From Oscillatoria acuminata PCC 6304 (GTDB lineage: Bacteria > Cyanobacteriota > Cyanobacteriia > Cyanobacteriales > Laspinemataceae), in assembly GCF_000317105.1 (NCBI RefSeq), contig NC_019693.1, forward strand, positions 3,903,227 to 3,967,226: a stretch of DNA of 64,000 nucleotides, written 5' to 3'. Shown here in pieces: positions 201 through 62,700 of the stretch (its first letter is position 1; each line of letters opens with the position of its first letter). The position numbers were made by a program, and so were the translations under genes. A model generated the notes under the pieces. The model searched no databases and was not told the origin of the DNA. It saw only the letters and a list, made by a program, of their open reading frames with translations.

Positions 201-444
201 AATTGGTTCACAAGTCTGAGCAATCGGATCTTTATTCAATTGTAACGGGACTGCTCACCCCCGTTAGTTTTCTGACGCGGACTGACTGTTAATCAGTGAT
301 TCAAACTGCCAAAATTTATCCCGAGAAGACCCCCTAAAGCGGGCTCATCCCACTAGCCCTGTCAAGGTGTGTAGATTGTAGGGGCGTATTGCATACGCCC
401 AAAAGAGGGCGTATGCAATACGCCCCTACAAGAAACCCTGATTT

Positions 445-2966
445 ATTAGGGGTCGAGAATGGAGTCACCTCCATCCCCTCCCATTCAGAACCGGACATGA
501 GACTTTCACCTCATCCGGCTCCTAGTTTAGACGCCCATTGTCATTGGTACGACTTGACGTTCTGCATATCTTCAGCCGTCTTTTTATCGTGACAGTGCCG
601 ATGCAATAACTGTAGATTTCGGTATTCATCTTTACCTCCCATTGAGAGTGGCTGGATGTGGTCAACCTCCATCAAGTCTTCCATTGCGAAATATTGTCCG
701 CAACGTGAACATCGGCCTGAGTGCTTTTTAAGCAATTTTGCTACTCGCATTGGAACTTCTAATGAGGTTCCTCTTCTAGTTGCCCAATAACTCCAATTTC
801 CGTCATACGGGGATGCTTCTGGCTTGACCAATGTATGCCTTGTAATTTGAGTATAGGAGTGTTTCCAGAGACTTAATCCGTCTTTTGCTTGAAACAGCCA
901 CTTCTCATTTCTTTCCTTTCCGTTTCCGATTTTAACCGTGACCTTATGGAAATATTTTCTCAGCTTTTCAAGGTTTGCCTGACCGCATCTTGATACTGTC
1001 CATGCCCTCAATTGTTGCCAAATGTTATAGTCCATTTGGCTGAAGGTTTCCGCTGAAACTACCCCTGAGTAGTAATTACTCCAACCTCTAATGATTGGGT
1101 TTAGTCTACTTATTAGGGCCGCTTGGGGTGCAGTTTTATGATTTTTGATGACACCCTTTAATGCTTCACTGTGGGCTTTGATTGCTTTGGCGCTTGGCTT
1201 GATATGGGTTTTATGCCCGATTAGTCTGCTGTTTGCGCCTCCTGTTTTCCCGGACTTGTATTTACCTACTGGATATTGCCTAATGGTAAATCCGAGGAAA
1301 TCAAATCCTGGGGTGACCTTTTCTCCATTTACTTCGATTTCTCTAAGTGTGTGGCATATTTTGGTCTTTTCAGGTTTAAGCTCAAGTCCTACGGGCTTTA
1401 GCCAGTTTTCCAAAGCTATCTTGCATTGATTGATGATTTCAATCTCTGGTGAGATTACTACGAAATCATCGGCATATCTGATTAAGGTGGCCTTGACTTT
1501 CTGACCTTGAATTAAAGGATACAGTTCTTCGATTAACCTGGCCATTCCATCCAATGCAATGTTGGCCAGGAGCGGACTTATCACTCCTCCTTGGGGTGTC
1601 CCGCTTGGGGTCTCCTCAAATACGCCATTATCCACTACCCCTGCCTTTAACCATTGTTTGATTTGGCGACGGTGTTGTGAACAACAATCTAATTTGGACA
1701 GTAGGTATTCATGGTTAATCTTGTCGAAGCATTTGGTTATATCTGCATCTAGGACATAATAACTGCCCTTATTTATAGATGCGTAGATGCGACCTATTGC
1801 GTCGTGGGCAGAGCGTCCTGGTCGGAAACCATAGCTCGTCCCTTCAAACCTAGCTTCCCATTCGGGTTCTAAGGCTTGTTTAACCAAGGCTTGCTCGGCT
1901 CTATCTCTAATAGTTGGGATACCCAATGGGCGCTTTTCATTACGTCCTGGTTTGGGAATCCAAACCCTTCTGAGTGCTTTGGCTAAGAATTGTTCACCAA
2001 GGTCCTTAACAAGTTCGAGGCGTTGTTCGGGTTTTAAGGATTTTACCCCATCTATCCCTGCCGTCCTCTTGCCTTGGTTGTCTTGGGTCACTTTCCTAAC
2101 CGCTAAGAGCCTCGCGTAATATGACGAGGTTAGAAGTTTTTGCAACCTTCTGGCTTTGGCATCCTGTCCCGATTTAGCCGCTTGGAAAATACGTTTTTGC
2201 AACTTAAATACTTTCCTTTGAACTTTTGCCCAAGGAATTGCATTCCATGTTTCCGTAGTCTTTAAACTCGTATTAACCTTGTTCATTGCTACTGTCATCT
2301 ATCCATTGCGTCTAAACCGTAACCTGTTAGCCTATCCATTCCATTACAGAATGGCGTTTGCTTCGGGTTACATCTCACCCCCTCAGTGCATCCGCTTACA
2401 CTTATTACTACTTAGGAAATCGACCAATTTCTAAGAGCATCTGAGGGGTTATAACGTTCCGTCTATGTGGGTGATTCACTTTTTGGCTTGTCCTATCTCC
2501 CGGTGGAATTGAGGGTCTGTGTAGAGGAAGACGAAAAGCCTCTACCTTTCCACGTATCCTTTTTGGATGCAGTGTTTCATCCCATTTCACTGCTAATTTT
2601 TTACGAGAGTTCAGGCCGGACATTCAGTTTCCTTAGCCGTGAGCGATTAGCAGTGGTCTCTATCCTAGGTTGGTCTACCTATTAGAGCCTTCCGTTCCCC
2701 GCTTCAATCCTAGGGTCGTGACTCCTAAAACTGGGGGTGGCTATCGCCGTTGCACCTGAAAAGTGTTGGCAACAAATTATTGCACTACTCATCAGAACCC
2801 TGTGCCGTCCTACCTTGAGTACCAAATTGGTAACTCATTTGGACACGCATAGACAGTTATGAGGTCATCTGGGACGAGTCCCTTTATCTAACCCAAGGGG
2901 GGTTAAAGCCTCACTGGGGGTTATTTCAGGCATTTCAGCCTTATTTCACTCCCAAACGTTTCGCAC
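445..2966 (-). mobile_element. Group II intron (about 2.5 kb) with an intron-encoded protein in domain IV
   Basis: The reverse-strand 5' end reads GTGCGAAACGTTTGGG (consensus GUGYG). Domain V at about 486-519 reads (rc) GAGCCGGATGAGGTGAAAGTCTCATGTCCGGTTC, matching the classic consensus. The 3' end is ...CCCCTAAT, ending in AY. The boundaries exactly restore the uninterrupted MITE sequence GACGAA|AAATCAGGG. Confidence 0.85.
541..2298 (-). CDS. Group II intron-encoded reverse transcriptase/maturase with C-terminal HNH endonuclease domain
   Basis: 585 aa. RT palm motif is present (...LIRYADDFVVIS...). A maturase X region is present (RGWSNYYS). A C-terminal HNH motif is present (CSRCG...VDHIQPLSMGGKDEYRNLQLLHRHCHDKKT). 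Confidence 0.9.
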   Translation of the reverse strand: MTVAMNKVNTSLKTTETWNAIPWAKVQRKVFKLQKRIFQAAKSGQDAKARRLQKLLTSSYYARLLAVRKVTQDNQGKRTAGIDGVKSLKPEQRLELVKDLGEQFLAKALRRVWIPKPGRNEKRPLGIPTIRDRAEQALVKQALEPEWEARFEGTSYGFRPGRSAHDAIGRIYASINKGSYYVLDADITKCFDKINHEYLLSKLDCCSQHRRQIKQWLKAGVVDNGVFEETPSGTPQGGVISPLLANIALDGMARLIEELYPLIQGQKVKATLIRYADDFVVISPEIEIINQCKIALENWLKPVGLELKPEKTKICHTLREIEVNGEKVTPGFDFLGFTIRQYPVGKYKSGKTGGANSRLIGHKTHIKPSAKAIKAHSEALKGVIKNHKTAPQAALISRLNPIIRGWSNYYSGVVSAETFSQMDYNIWQQLRAWTVSRCGQANLEKLRKYFHKVTVKIGNGKERNEKWLFQAKDGLSLWKHSYTQITRHTLVKPEASPYDGNWSYWATRRGTSLEVPMRVAKLLKKHSGRCSRCGQYFAMEDLMEVDHIQPLSMGGKDEYRNLQLLHRHCHDKKTAEDMQNVKSYQ

Positions 2967-3227
2967 TTCGTCATTAAATTTATCACCTTGACAGGGCTAG
3001 CTCATCCCACCCTTTGGTGATAAAAATTGCTTAATTCATTGATTAATAACTACAAAGCGATTCAAATAAAATTTAATCAAAATTAACCACTAGGGCAGAT
3101 TTAAACAAAAAACTCCCCACGATGCGGGGGAGCGCAAAATCACCCAGTTTGAAATTTATAGAGCTTCAAACAGCTCCCCTTATTCACAATTAATCTATTC
3201 CTTCATGGGAACTCATGATTCTAGGGT

Positions 3228-4046
3228 TTAACCTTCAGTTTGAATCAGAGTTTGCGGCTTTTTTTTACCATATCTAAGGACTCCAAATCCCACCAGTAAG
3301 AGTGCTGTCGTAGCTGTAGGTTCCGGAACCTGTCTCGGACTTTCTGAGGGAATGCCGATATCAATCGTACCCCGTCCCGTGCCGCTAGCGCCGGCAAAAG
3401 TCTGTCCGTTAATGCTTTGGTAGCGAACACCAAAGTTGTTCAGAGCAAAGCTTTGAACTTCACCAGAAAAGGCTAGAGTCGCCTTAAAGTTTCCAGTATT
3501 CCCGGTAGTGACGCCGCCATTGCCTCCCCCTTCGCAGGTATTCCCATTGGTAAAGCAGACATCAATTTCTTTAAACCCATTAGGAAAGGAGCCAGAGCGG
3601 TCCTTGCTAAATAAGCCTTCAACTCGGGTCTTGCCTGCACCATTAGTGTTGCCGAGGCCAACCAAGTTCATACTTGACCCGACACTGGAGCCATCAAAAT
3701 TCCAAACATCAAACCCTAACGCTGAGGTGCGAGAGGTGATGCCATTGCTGGAGTTGTTCTTGAGGAACACATCAAAAATTGCCTCGGTGTTGCTGCCAAC
3801 GCTGTTAAATCCGAGGAATTTAAAAATTGCTTCTGATGAGAGTCCCGTAACGGTTTTTTCCTTGACGACGCTTCCGTCAAAGTTAATGGTAAACTCTTTG
3901 CCAATATCGCTGGCAGAAATGCCAACAGTTTTACTGCTGTCAAAAAGAGTAAACGCTGAGGCAGAAGCGGCGACTGTCAAGGAGTAAACCCCGACGGAGC
4001 CAATGACTGATAGTCCTAAAGTAAGTGGTTTGAGCAATCTAAACAT
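3228..4046 (-). CDS. PEP-CTERM sorting-domain secreted protein (exosortase substrate), function unknown
   Basis: N-terminal signal peptide (MFRLLKPLTLGLSVIGSVGVYSLTVAASASA). C-terminal PEP-CTERM motif (VPEPTATTALLLVGFGVLRYGKKKPQ). Gly/Asn/Ser-rich mature part. Confidence 0.6.
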   Translation of the reverse strand: MFRLLKPLTLGLSVIGSVGVYSLTVAASASAFTLFDSSKTVGISASDIGKEFTINFDGSVVKEKTVTGLSSEAIFKFLGFNSVGSNTEAIFDVFLKNNSSNGITSRTSALGFDVWNFDGSSVGSSMNLVGLGNTNGAGKTRVEGLFSKDRSGSFPNGFKEIDVCFTNGNTCEGGGNGGVTTGNTGNFKATLAFSGEVQSFALNNFGVRYQSINGQTFAGASGTGRGTIDIGIPSESPRQVPEPTATTALLLVGFGVLRYGKKKPQTLIQTEG

Positions 4047-21797: not shown

Positions 21798-21837
21798 TGG
21801 GTTATTATCGTGTTTGTTTGATCATCCACGGGGACCT

Positions 21838-22075
21838 AACCCCCCAGCCCCCTTCCCTAAGAGGGAAGGGGAGAAGAGGGAAGGGGGTGAAGAGGGAAGG
21901 GGGTGAAGAGAGAAGGGGGTGAAGAGTAGGTTTTTTACGCTTAAGAACACCTCCGGTTCCCTCCCCTTGGCAAGGGGAGGGGACCGGAAGTCACAAACTA
22001 CTCCTGTAAGGAAGCGGGAAGCGGGAAGGGGAAGAAGAGGAAGAAATGGGTTTTTAGGTTAATTCACCAGAATTG
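21838..22075. repeat. Composite short-repeat block: palindromic CCCCCTTCCCTAAGAGGGAAGGGG, tandem GAAGAGGGAAGGGGGT units, palindrome CCTCCCCTTGGCAAGGGGAGG
   Basis: Direct visual repeats. The same palindromic motifs recur at 25395-25430, 25755-25895, 30630-30680 and 46490-46980. Confidence 0.7.
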
Positions 22076-25350: not shown

Positions 25351-25380
25351 CGCTTATATCAAGTTGCAACACCCTGCGGG

Positions 25381-25930
25381 GGTTCTCTCCGGTCCCCTCC
25401 CCTTGGCAAGGGGAGGGTTAGGGTGGGGTTCTTTTTGTGCGATTCCCTACGGGATAGCTCCGCTTACCGCACATCACGAAGAAAGAGGTTGGCACCCGGC
25501 TCCATACAGGCGCGATCGCCCTAGCCCTGTCAAGGTGATAAATTTAATGACGAAAAATCAGGGTTTCTTGGACAGGCGATCACTCTCGCGGCCCTACAAG
25601 AGGTAAATTTAATGACGAAAAATCAGGGTTTCTTGTAGGGGCGTATTGCATACGCCCAAAAGAGGGCGTATGCAATACGCCCCTACAATCTACACACCTT
25701 GACAGGGCTAGTGCGATCGCCCCCAAGAGTGCGTGACGTGGCGATCGGCAAAGAGGGACCCCACCCTAACCCTTCCCTTGCCAAGGGGAGGGAACCGGAG
25801 GTGCAGTTAAGCGTAAAAAACCTACTCTTGTATAAAGAATTAATCCCCCCCGGTTGTTTCCACTCTTGCTCCCCCTTCCCTCCCAGGGAAGGGGGTTGGG
25901 GGGTTAGGTCAATCTGGATGAGCAAGCAAA
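25381..25930. repeat. Nested repeat region: MITE copy B (25521-25711, with an internal partial tandem duplication) inserted into a larger palindromic element whose intact counterpart lies at about 46990-47170
   Basis: CTAGCCCTGTCAAGG...CCTTGACAGGGCTAG encloses the GGGGCGTATTGCATACGCCC hairpin. The flanks ...CACGAAGAAAGAGGTTGGCACCCGGCTCCATACAGGCG / GAGTGCGTGACGTGGCGATCGGCAAAGAGGGACCCCACCCTAACCC are contiguous in the 47040-47130 copy. Confidence 0.65.
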
Positions 25931-25940
25931 CATAATATGA

Positions 25941-29253: not shown

Positions 29254-29535
29254 ACTTCAAATTAGGTAAGGAATTTTAATACAAGATTGGGTCTTGTTTT
29301 GAAGAGCAAGGCTACCGACTATTATTATAGCCCTAAAAATTTTGGAGGCTTTTCCCAAAAAACTCTTTAGGTTTTTATTTTAACACTATAACTGTCGAGG
29401 TGTCAAGAACAGCTAGAGGTTTGAGCTATAAATGTTTATAGTATGGTTGTAATCTTTGCTAGATAAGGCTTTTTGCTTCTAGTAAGTAGGAGTAAGGTGG
29501 GCAGTACCCACCCTACAATTGCTTGTTGGATGATA

Positions 29536-30441: not shown

Positions 30442-30673
30442 GGGTGGGGTTGATGGGGTAGTGGATTGCTTGGGCGGTTGAGAAACCGGGTTTCTTAGTA
30501 AACATTATGCCTTACAATTACGGTTATCGCAGAAACCCGGTTTCTGGGCTTTTTGGGACTAGAGGCAAGAGCGAATTTGGTCATGGCGGATTCATGTCCC
30601 AAAAAACACGAGGGAAGAGGACTTTCGCTCCCCTCTTGCTCCCCCTTCCCTCCCAGGGAAGGGGGCTGGGGGG

Positions 30674-46365: not shown

Positions 46366-46474
46366 TCCCTGAATTTCAGGTCCCCTCTGGATCCTGACGA
46401 AGTTTTGCCGGTTTCAAGGCTAAAATTGGAATTAGGGAAGCACCCGTTTGTTGTGAGGCGATTTTATTGGGATC

Positions 46475-46745
46475 ATCTTTGAAAAGAGACCTATCCCCCC
46501 GGCCCCCTTCCCTAAGAGGGAAGGGGGAGAAAGAGATTTGTTTTCCCCTTTCTTTAGTAATTGGGAGCATCTTTGAAAAGAGACCTATCCCCCCGGCCCC
46601 CTTCCCTCAGAGGGAAGGGGGAGAAAGAGATTTGTTTTCCCCTTTCTTTAGTAATTGGGAGCATCTTTGAAAAGAGACCTAACCCCCCGGCCCCCTTCCC
46701 TAGGAGGGAAGGGGGAGAAAGAGATTTGTTTTCCCCTCCCCTACA
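46475..46745. repeat. Tandem repeat, about 3 units of 94 bp, each containing the palindrome CCCCCTTCCCTAAGAGGGAAGGGGG
   Basis: Units start at 46475, 46569 and 46663 with exact 94-bp period. The ORFs over it (46467-46670, 46561-46854) are frame artefacts. Confidence 0.85.
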
Positions 46746-46790
46746 AAAGGCTTACAAGAGTATGTTTTTTACCCTCATGGTGATTGGCCG

Positions 46791-46990
46791 GACTTCCGGT
46801 CCCCTCCCCTTGGCAAGGGGAGGGTTAGGGTGGGGTCCTCCTGACTTGGCTTGACTTCCGGTTCCCTCCCCTTGGCAAGGGGAGGGTTAGGGTGGGGTCC
46901 TCCTGACTTGGCCTGATTTCCGGTCCCCTCCCCTTGGCAAGGGGAGGGTTAGGGTGGGGTCCTCCTGACTTGGCGCAGGCCAAGTCAGGA
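46791..46990. repeat. Tandem repeat, 3 units of 62 bp (GACTTCCGGTCCCCTCCCCTTGGCAAGGGGAGGGTTAGGGTGGGGTCCTCCTGACTTGGC...) ending in the palindrome GACTTGGCGCAGGCCAAGTC
   Basis: Units start at 46791, 46853 and 46915. Each contains the CCCCTTGGCAAGGGG palindrome. Confidence 0.85.
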
Positions 46991-47109
46991 AGAATTAGTA
47001 CGTTGAGGGTCCACTCGCAAGGGCGATCGCACGTCACGAAGAAGCAGGTTGGCACCCGGTTCCATACAGGCGATTAAGCCTCATGGGAGTGCGTGACATG
47101 GCGATCGAC

Positions 47110-47422
47110 CAAGAAGAACCCCACCCTAACCCGGACCTAGAATCAGGGGAGGGGACCGGAAGTCAGGCCAATTAGGGAATTCCAAAAAATAAAATCTCCA
47201 AAACGTTCGTAGTGACGGATCAACGGAGTAGCCCCTACAGATACCTTCCTTTCAGTTGAACGTTTGGAGGATTTATATTTTGCAATCCCCTTAGAAGAAC
47301 CCCACCCTAACCCGGACCTAGAATCAGGGGAGGGGACCGGAAGTCAGGCCAATCAATTAGAAGAACCCCACCCTAACCCGGACCTAGAATCAGGGGAGGG
47401 GACCGGAAATCAGGCCAATCAT
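47110..47422. repeat. Three copies (two tandem) of an about 66-bp unit AGAAGAACCCCACCCTAACCCGGACCTAGAATCAGGGGAGGGGACCGGAAGTCAGGCCAAT, in inverted orientation relative to the 46791-46990 array
   Basis: The CCCCACCCTAACCC core is the reverse complement of the GGGTTAGGGTGGGG core of the upstream array. ORF 47264-47467 is a translation artefact of the repeats. Confidence 0.8.
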
Positions 47423-47635
47423 GATGAGCTTGAAAACACTACTCTTGTAAGGGTAGGGCAAAATTGAGAGGCTCTTATCCAGGTCAGGCTTTCGTGATTT
47501 TCTCAGCATTAAAACCCATTCATCCCGTTTGGGTTCAAAGGACTATTTAGGTTTGACCCGGCTCCACAAATTCAACCCTTTTCACTGCTTAGACCGCTGC
47601 TAAAACAATTCATAATTTTAATGAATTAAACCCGT

Positions 47636-62544: not shown

Positions 62545-62700
62545 CTAGCCCTGTCAAGGTGGTAAATTGAATGACGAAAAATCGTTATTTCTTGTAGGGG
62601 CGCAATGCGCAGGCCCTCCGGAGGGCCTGCGCATTGCGCCCCTACAGATACCTTCCTTTCAGTTGAACCGTTGCATGATTTATATTTTGCAATCCCCTTA
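62545..62700. repeat. MITE copy E (left TIR plus variant hairpin GGGGCGCAATGCGCAGGCCCTCCGGAGGGCCTGCGCATTGCGCCCC) fused to a 55-bp module (GATACCTTCCTTTCAGTTGAAC...TTTGCAATCCCCTTA) that also occurs at 47234-47292
   Basis: Direct comparison of the 62647-62700 and 47234-47292 stretches. The right TIR is replaced by the shared module. Confidence 0.6.

Follow-up and report, generated by a model that had tools for sequence, protein, structure and literature searches.

How does a group II intron come to lie inside a small repeat element that shows the marks of a transposon itself, and is its position there a cognate homing site or an accident? The question is raised by a 64,000-nt stretch of the Oscillatoria acuminata PCC 6304 genome (NC_019693.1, positions 3,903,227 to 3,967,226; hereafter the window), for which a preliminary description had proposed an intron nested in a MITE, short for miniature inverted-repeat transposable element. 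We find that the nested element is a real group II intron, as first read, and that it very probably arrived by retrohoming, its target being the asymmetric left arm of a 126-nt MITE that was already present in an intergenic region.

The intron and its host element

Read from the sequence, positions 445-2966 (2,522 nt) of the minus strand are occupied by a full-length group II intron that begins with GUGCG (2966..2962) and ends with AU (446..445), in agreement with the GUGYG/AY consensus and with the ends of its relatives. On the minus strand, with a slash marking the junction, the 5' junction reads ...GGTGATAAATTTAATGACGAA/GTGCGAAACG... at 2967/2966 (with longer flanks, ...CTAGCCCTGTCAAGGTGATAAATTTAATGACGAA/GTGCGAAACGTTTGGG...) and the 3' junction ...CGACCCCTAAT/AAATCAGGGTTTCTTG... 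at 445/444 (...TTCTCGACCCCTAAT/AAATCAGGGTTTCTTGTAGGGGCG...). In five full-length relatives the homology begins at intron nt 1 and stops at nt 2522, and the match to the Rfam family Intron_gpII (RF00029) stops exactly at the intron end, 445; the boundaries of the preliminary description hold. The intron, which is present once in the window, is complete and apparently functional.

Deletion of 445-2966 joins ...AATGACGAA/AAATCAGGG... and restores, as had been proposed, an intact element, 126 nt long, with perfect 17-bp terminal inverted repeats (TIRs), a 30-nt left arm containing the intron target, a hairpin with a 25-bp stem and a 6-nt right arm. This restored MITE folds at -49.9 kcal/mol (z = -15.4). 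Its TIR, CTAGCCCTGTCAAGGTG (17 nt), shows 0 mismatches between 353-369 on the plus and 2984-3000 on the minus strand and is found nine times in the window versus 0.17 occurrences expected, an excess of about 50-fold. The 9-bp direct repeats that had been reported around the element are also there: CTCATCCCA stands at 344-352 and at 3001-3009 with 9/9 identity (chance about 4e-6 at two fixed positions), as expected of a target-site duplication (TSD). Copy A, as we call this occupied element, has several marks of a MITE, namely TIRs, a TSD, small size, a lack of coding sequence and multiple copies. The label is fair for this copy, but its relatives form a mosaic family, and the search for an autonomous partner was negative: the window contains no transposase gene with such TIRs, no matching element was found in the plasmid collection or among viral contigs, and a literature search with the TIR and hairpin sequences gave unrelated matches only.

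Five further full or partial MITE copies lie in the same 64 kb, at 25521-25711 (copy B), 38703-38887, ~40376-40460 and ~62545-62646 and, as a solo end, at 29534. Copy B, cited in the preliminary description as the uninterrupted counterpart of copy A, is indeed uninterrupted, but it measures 191 nt instead of 126 nt, with a duplicated arm and a flipped loop. Its positions 25521-25570 are 100% identical to MITE positions 1-50 (TIR and left arm); after these first 50 nt comes an unrelated 33-nt stretch, and 25604-25713 is 94.5% identical to MITE positions 19-128 (second left arm, hairpin, right TIR), the six mismatches being the hairpin loop in inverted orientation. Because the left arm is internally duplicated, the junction AATGACGAA/AAATCAGGG is present twice in copy B, intact both times. 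On either side of copy B the sequence agrees only when shifted by 1 nt, inside a HIP1 site, leaving its TSD ambiguous; the copies other than A and B are truncated, and the clean TIR and TSD signature is confined to copy A. The other copies have been rearranged, are hybrids or are joined to other repeats, and the repeat family is to be regarded as a mosaic.

Some further details of these copies were noted. The 6-nt loop of the 25-bp palindrome reads AAAAGA at 401-406 in copy A and TCTTTT at 25658-25663 in copy B, and this inversion looks like a flip within a perfect inverted repeat. The copies 25521-25711 and 38703-38887 each carry, independently, a left-arm duplication that doubles the targets per element; in 38703-38887 the duplication is joined at GCCC, a motif common to the hairpin top and the TIR. 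The latter copy lies in the loop of a long inverted repeat, 38655-38702/38888-38925 (GCAACAACCGCTGGGG...CCCCAGCGGTTGTTGC), and it seems that a terminator-like hairpin was its point of insertion. Direct repeats of 58 nt, identical throughout (40319-40376/40518-40575), bracket an insert of ~141 nt that starts with a degenerate TIR (CTAGCCCTGTCCAAGTG) and has hairpin halves from different variants; a target duplication of exceptional length, or a tandem duplication about a fragment of a repeat, could account for them.

Recognition of the MITE arm

At the occupied site, exon-binding site 1 (EBS1, TTCGTC) pairs with intron-binding site 1 (IBS1, GACGAA) at 6/6 positions, EBS2 (AAATT) with IBS2 (AATTT) at 5/5, and the U of EBS3 with the exon +1 A, giving 12/12 pairs overall (6+5+1). 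The assignments come from relatives that we gathered via the intron-encoded protein (IEP); their GUGYG starts were located and the 5' ~570-690 nt of 19 introns aligned. Five near relatives (85-94% identity) differ from the window intron chiefly in two short loops, and in the first of these the EBS1 and the exon change in step, as in UUACCU/AGGUAA, GUAUGU/ACAUAC and GCCUAU/AUAGGC. Full 6/6 EBS1 pairing is found, besides the window intron, in contigs L004 (GTATGT/ACATAC) and L008 (GCCTAT/ATAGGC) and in L002, L003 and L040 (TTACCT/AGGTAA), while in L001, the copy that was scored, the exon reads AAGTAA and pairs at 5/6. The second loop behaves alike, EBS2 being GAAUG with CATTC or UCAUU with AATGA. 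Over the 19 intron/exon pairs, the cognate EBS1 and EBS2 pairings score above all 20,000 random re-pairings. Nucleotide 472 of the intron (alignment column 619), directly 3' of a domain I helix, is assigned as EBS3 because in 14/15 introns it is the complement of the base that opens the 3' exon. Since all 12 EBS/IBS pairs form and their assignments are backed by covariation, the site is a cognate homing site and not an ectopic one; the pairing analysis that the preliminary description had suggested as a check thus turned out positive.

Ribozyme domains and the intron-encoded protein

RF00029 covers domains V and VI at 523..445 of the minus strand with 58.2 bits, versus a gathering score of 40, over the full model (1-77). 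RF04357 scores 55 bits at domain V, which is free of non-canonical pairs and which a plastid group II domain V model (ndhA/ndhB) matches above its threshold. The domain V of the preliminary description is confirmed. For the 5' part, RNAalifold applied to the 19 introns recovered the closing stem and inner helices of domain I together with domains II and III, and at 41 of the 56 predicted pairs of domains I-III both sides have changed in at least one sequence with pairing kept. The open reading frame (ORF; intron nt 669-2426) lies between domains III and V and therefore in domain IV. Domains I to VI, the structure whose absence from a covariance search had been named as counting against an intron, are thus accounted for, domains V and VI being delimited by Rfam, domain IV by its ORF and domains I-III by the comparative fold.

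The sole long ORF of the intron (541-2298, minus strand) is uninterrupted and encodes a 585-aa protein with the domains RVT_N, RVT_1, GIIM and HNH, and YADD and HNH motifs can be read in its amino acid sequence; the reverse transcriptase (RT), maturase X and HNH parts named in the preliminary description are hence all in place. The protein passes TIGR04416, the NCBIfam equivalog for group II RT/maturases, with 338 bits versus a cut-off of 300. Among PDB structures, it is nearest to the T.el4h IEP (6ME0, E = 4e-105), with LtrA and the IIC RTs far behind. Recognition of the 3' exon runs through EBS3-IBS3, with EBS3 apart from EBS1, and not through delta-delta'; this is as expected of the IIB RNA class, EBS3-IBS3 pairing being the published IIB/IIC mode of 3'-exon recognition (PMC4424553). 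As part of the overall explanation that we favor, the window intron is, with high probability, a mobile IIB-type group II intron, putatively chloroplast-like, that encodes an RT-maturase-HNH protein.

The 585-aa IEP is encoded, without any difference, by at least four GenBank coding sequences (CDSs) of PCC 6304 (AFY82168, AFY82754, AFY82832, AFY83477), and at least eight more encode proteins 93-96% identical to it. Identical copies in the same genome suggest recent mobility and strengthen the case that the intron is probably active; splicing and mobility would, on these grounds, continue at present. Junction-spanning ORFs, taken as a proxy for copy number, were absent from the protein collection. 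As a separate matter, three IEP genes outside the window, AFY82824, AFY82832 and AFY82833, lie within ten gene numbers, two of them adjacent, and could form a tandem or nested intron cluster.

Relatives in other organisms

Introns 93-94% identical to that of the window were found in a cyanobacterial metagenome-assembled genome and in contigs from ENA and Logan (L001-L003, L039, L040), 94% being the maximum of the contig scan. L001-L003 and L040 have the common 5' exon CCTACATTCCGCA(G/A)GTAA, of which L039 has the diverged version TTACATTTTATGAGTAA; the 3' exon starts with AATA wherever the 3' flank can be read (L002, L003, L039), whereas L001 and L040 run up to the edge of their contigs. Shared among these introns are thus 18 nt of 5' exon and 4 nt of 3' exon (CCTACATTCCGCAGGTAA/AATA), with no likeness beyond these stretches. 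An IS4-like transposase gene (DUF4277 and DDE_Tnp_1) has its start codon ~29 nt downstream of the intron end in L002 and L039. Because this gene starts so close downstream, the target of these relatives is probably the leader or end of an insertion sequence (IS). A TIR search of the IS4-like element beside the L039 intron gave no convincing inverted repeat; in L003, the sequence downstream of the intron differs from that of L002 and L039. Further relatives, L004/L041, L005 and L036 among them, sit at unrelated sites, each of which fits the EBS loops of its own intron. As the 93-94% identical relatives adjoin an IS4-like gene instead of the MITE, the lineage appears to retarget between mobile-element hosts.

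The MITE itself was not met elsewhere. A metagenome scan with the arm as far as the point of insertion (GGTGRTAAATTKAATGACGAA) gave two matches, both chance occurrences in unrelated coding sequence. Searching the plasmid collection with the intron and with the MITE returned nothing relevant, and neither the TIR nor the 5' end of the intron was found in viral contigs.

How the nested element may have arisen

The account that we favor would have the MITE in place first. The intron RNA would then have chosen its target by base pairing, of EBS2 to -14..-10, of EBS1 to -6..-1 and of EBS3 to +1, and reverse-spliced into the DNA strand bearing AATGACGAA/AAATC; the HNH domain would have nicked the opposite strand and the RT copied the intron. 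With a mobile element as its target, one that is repeated and not essential, such an insertion would be harmless to the host, and each new MITE copy would be a potential site.

Several observations weigh against this reading. The flanks of the PCC 6304 intron were read in the 64-kb window only. Over 300-3100, no Rfam model for domains I-IV matched even at E <= 1, which is why domains I-III had to be delimited by our own comparative fold. None of the relatives sits in this MITE, nor did any other genome or metagenome scanned contain an intron in it. An intrinsic terminator (3133-3112) on the strand of the intron lies ~100 nt upstream of the MITE, and no convincing promoter was found ahead of the intron. 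Finally, two perfect (12/12) and three 11/12 targets in the same 64 kb are unoccupied, so that either homing is far from saturating or this intron copy is poorly expressed. The many homing sites of the preliminary description are borne out only in part: the window has two perfect and three near-perfect extra targets, but all of them are empty.

Doubt about the host element is the first matter to be weighed. It may be a module of mosaic hairpin repeats, akin to repetitive extragenic palindromes or bacterial interspersed mosaic elements (REP/BIME-like), that spread by recombination or replication slippage, in which case the 9-bp identity would be incidental and the intron would have homed anyway. 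The state of the family fits this idea: rearrangement, hybrid structure or fusion to other repeats marks copies B, C, D and E, two of them with arm duplications and one with mismatched hairpin halves; copy B has the flank offset in the HIP1 site; and neither an autonomous element nor, in plasmids, viral contigs and the literature, the TIR was found. Copy A is hard to accommodate, however: here perfect 17-bp TIRs abut a 9/9 direct repeat, the chance of which was given above, and the TIR is 50-fold over-represented. We consider this origin of the host element unlikely.

An alternative route leaves the MITE a transposon and changes the order of events: the intron would have entered a MITE elsewhere, and a transposase supplied in trans would then have carried the intron-loaded MITE of 2.65 kb to this locus as DNA, with the 9-bp duplication arising on its arrival. 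The perfect TIRs and TSD around the composite agree with such a move, and the 100% identity of the MITE arms with those of copy B suggests recent MITE activity; as to the order of the two events, the window data give none. Yet the window holds neither a second intron-loaded copy nor a transposase with these TIRs, and empty MITEs with perfect targets show that resident copies can receive the intron by homing and that no other route is needed. A DNA-level arrival strikes us as quite improbable.

That the intron is an immobile relic persisting at its site would agree with the empty perfect targets nearby, the upstream terminator and the want of a clear promoter, but it is quite improbable in view of the uninterrupted ORF with all catalytic motifs kept, canonical domains V and VI, perfect EBS/IBS pairing and at least four CDSs for an identical protein in the genome, which imply very recent copying. 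The notion that the flanks are exon sequence carried along by the intron was ruled out, as uninterrupted copies of the element exist.

Starting from homing into a resident MITE, one may speculate further that intron and MITE spread as a pair. MITE amplification and arm duplication would make fresh sites, the loaded MITE could be moved as DNA in trans, and the adjacent IEP genes AFY82832 and AFY82833 could fill both targets of a MITE with a duplicated arm like that at 25521-25711. We regard this as a distinctly unlikely extension. If it were true, mobilization of a loaded MITE at the DNA level would give a retroelement a second, DNA-based transposition route.

Relation to known systems

Bacterial group II introns are typically found outside housekeeping genes and among other mobile DNA (PMC4424553), and the intron in a MITE is a fresh example of this established habit of residing inside other mobile DNA. 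The closest characterized relatives are TeI3/TeI4 of Thermosynechococcus elongatus, which are IIB1, chloroplast-like introns with EBS1, EBS2 and EBS3 of 6, 5 and 1 nt, and for which insertion at a conserved site in an IS or another intron has been explicitly presented as a proliferation mechanism (PMC2882425, Mohr, Ghanem & Lambowitz 2010). The IS4-like siting of the 93-94% identical relatives matches this published strategy of related cyanobacterial introns (PMC2882425). Like TeI3/TeI4, the window intron is cyanobacterial, encodes an IEP with an endonuclease (En) domain whose best structure match is the T.el4h IEP, has a 6-nt EBS1, a 5-nt EBS2 and a 1-nt EBS3, and belongs to multi-copy families that diverge in their EBS. 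Unlike them, it has as host a 126-nt non-coding MITE instead of an IS or intron, it belongs to a mesophilic Oscillatoria, and the window contains no twintron.

The natural homing site of RmInt1 of Sinorhizobium meliloti lies inside the insertion sequence ISRm2011-2. Here, too, the cognate target is within a multicopy transposable element whose spread supplies sites; RmInt1 differs in its En-less IEP, which is of another class, and in the autonomous IS that hosts it (for the RmInt1 family, see PMC4615759). Group IIC and attC-targeting introns insert beside repeated hairpin-forming non-coding motifs outside genes (PMC4424553), and the present site also adjoins such a motif. Those introns, however, recognize the stem-loop, insert downstream of it and use short EBS1/EBS3 pairing only, whereas the window intron shows full EBS1 and EBS2 pairing and is inserted 16 nt upstream of the hairpin. 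In a literature search, no paper turned up that describes a MITE as the homing target of a group II intron. The nearest case was the 'MITEtron' of Candidatus Thiomargarita nelsonii, a group I intron carrying a MITE (PMC4853749); the nesting of intron and MITE is alike, but in the opposite order, with the MITE inside the intron, and the intron is of group I.

With the present case, a non-autonomous MITE joins IS elements, other introns and attC/terminator motifs as a safe, self-multiplying landing pad. What the locus adds is the MITE as host, an internally duplicated target arm, and a clean instance of natural retargeting, in which ribozymes 93-94% identical carry different EBS1/EBS2 loops and address a MITE arm in PCC 6304 versus an IS4-like leader in the relatives. 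In practice the locus is of use chiefly for annotation: the IEP is already in GenBank, while the intron boundaries, the MITE and the empty targets are not evident there. With its EBS positions defined, the intron might serve as a mesophilic cyanobacterial targetron scaffold.

Features, genomic context and minor observations

Table 1. Coordinates of the intron, its host element and related features (positions in the window unless a contig is named; '.' in the strand column, no strand)
Feature	Position	Strand	Basis
Group II intron, complete, 2,522 nt, 5' GUGCG, 3' AU	445..2966	-	sequence, relatives, comparative fold
Domain I; closing stem intron nt 7-12 with 509-514	2453..2960	-	RNAalifold, 19 relatives
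Domain II, intron nt 519-589	2378..2448	-	RNAalifold, 19 relatives
Domain III, intron nt 596-648	2319..2371	-	RNAalifold, 19 relatives, compensatory pairs
IEP, 585 aa, in domain IV: RVT_N, RT (YADD), maturase X, HNH endonuclease	541..2298	-	ORF, domain searches
Domain V (GAGCCGGAUGAGGUGAAAGUCUCAUGUCCGGUUC), AGC triad included; intron nt 2446-2479	488..521	-	RF00029, RF04357
Domain VI; putative bulged branch-point A at 453 (bulged GA 454-453)	449..483	-	Rfam alignment; kept in relatives
EBS1 (UUCGUC), hairpin loop, intron nt 432-437	2530..2535	-	covaries with exon -6..-1, 19 introns, permutation p < 5e-5
EBS2 (AAAUU), intron nt 368-372	2595..2599	-	covaries with exon ~-14..-10, permutation p < 5e-5
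EBS3 (U), intron nt 472	2495..2495	-	alignment column 619 complementary to +1 base, 14/15 introns
IBS1 (GACGAA), final 6 nt of 5' exon, in MITE left arm	2967..2972	-	sequence
IBS2 (AATTT), exon -14..-10, in MITE left arm	2976..2980	-	sequence
Proximal 3' exon (AAATCAGGGTTTC on minus strand); IBS3 = A at 444	432..444	-	sequence, EBS3 analysis
TSD of MITE, 9 bp (CTCATCCCA), low-coordinate copy	344..352	.	sequence; identical to 3001-3009
TIR (CTAGCCCTGTCAAGGTG), MITE end distal to the 3' exon of the intron	353..369	+	0 mismatches
Central perfect MITE hairpin, 25-bp stem (TTGTAGGGGCGTATTGCATACGCCC), 6-nt loop AAAAGA	376..431	.	repeat and fold analysis
TIR (CTAGCCCTGTCAAGGTG), MITE end adjoining 5' exon	2984..3000	-	0 mismatches
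TSD, 9 bp, high-coordinate copy	3001..3009	.	sequence
Second MITE copy (B), 191 nt, left arm duplicated; two empty perfect targets 25554/25555, 25619/25620	25521..25711	+	sequence comparison
Third MITE copy, rearranged, arm duplicated; two empty targets, one IBS1 mismatch each	38703..38887	-	sequence comparison
MITE left end and variant hairpin fused to different repeat; empty target, one IBS2 mismatch	62545..62646	+	sequence comparison
18-nt 5' exon of relatives	L001 2315-2332; L002 1180-1197; L003 2315-2332		sequence comparison

The composite of intron and MITE lies between the gene of a PEP-CTERM protein (cistern-family; 3228-4046, minus strand) and a glutaredoxin gene starting at 200 (minus strand), both of which run in the direction of the intron. 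Being placed between two genes, the intron interrupts no coding sequence, and the host has no need of its splicing.

An Rfam match to 5_ureB_sRNA at 37094-37384 (minus strand; 85.9 bits) contains many non-canonical pairs and most likely merely reflects coding conservation of ureB. More small G+C-rich hairpin repeat families (CCCCTTGGCAAGGGGAGGG; CCCCCTTCCCTnnGAGGGAAGGGGG) are found at 21800-22040, 25377-25443, 25756-25937, 30626-30687 and 46466-47451, with tandem arrays of 62-nt and 94-nt units among them at 46.4-47.4 kb. One of these G+C-rich hairpin families also flanks the related intron in contig L039.

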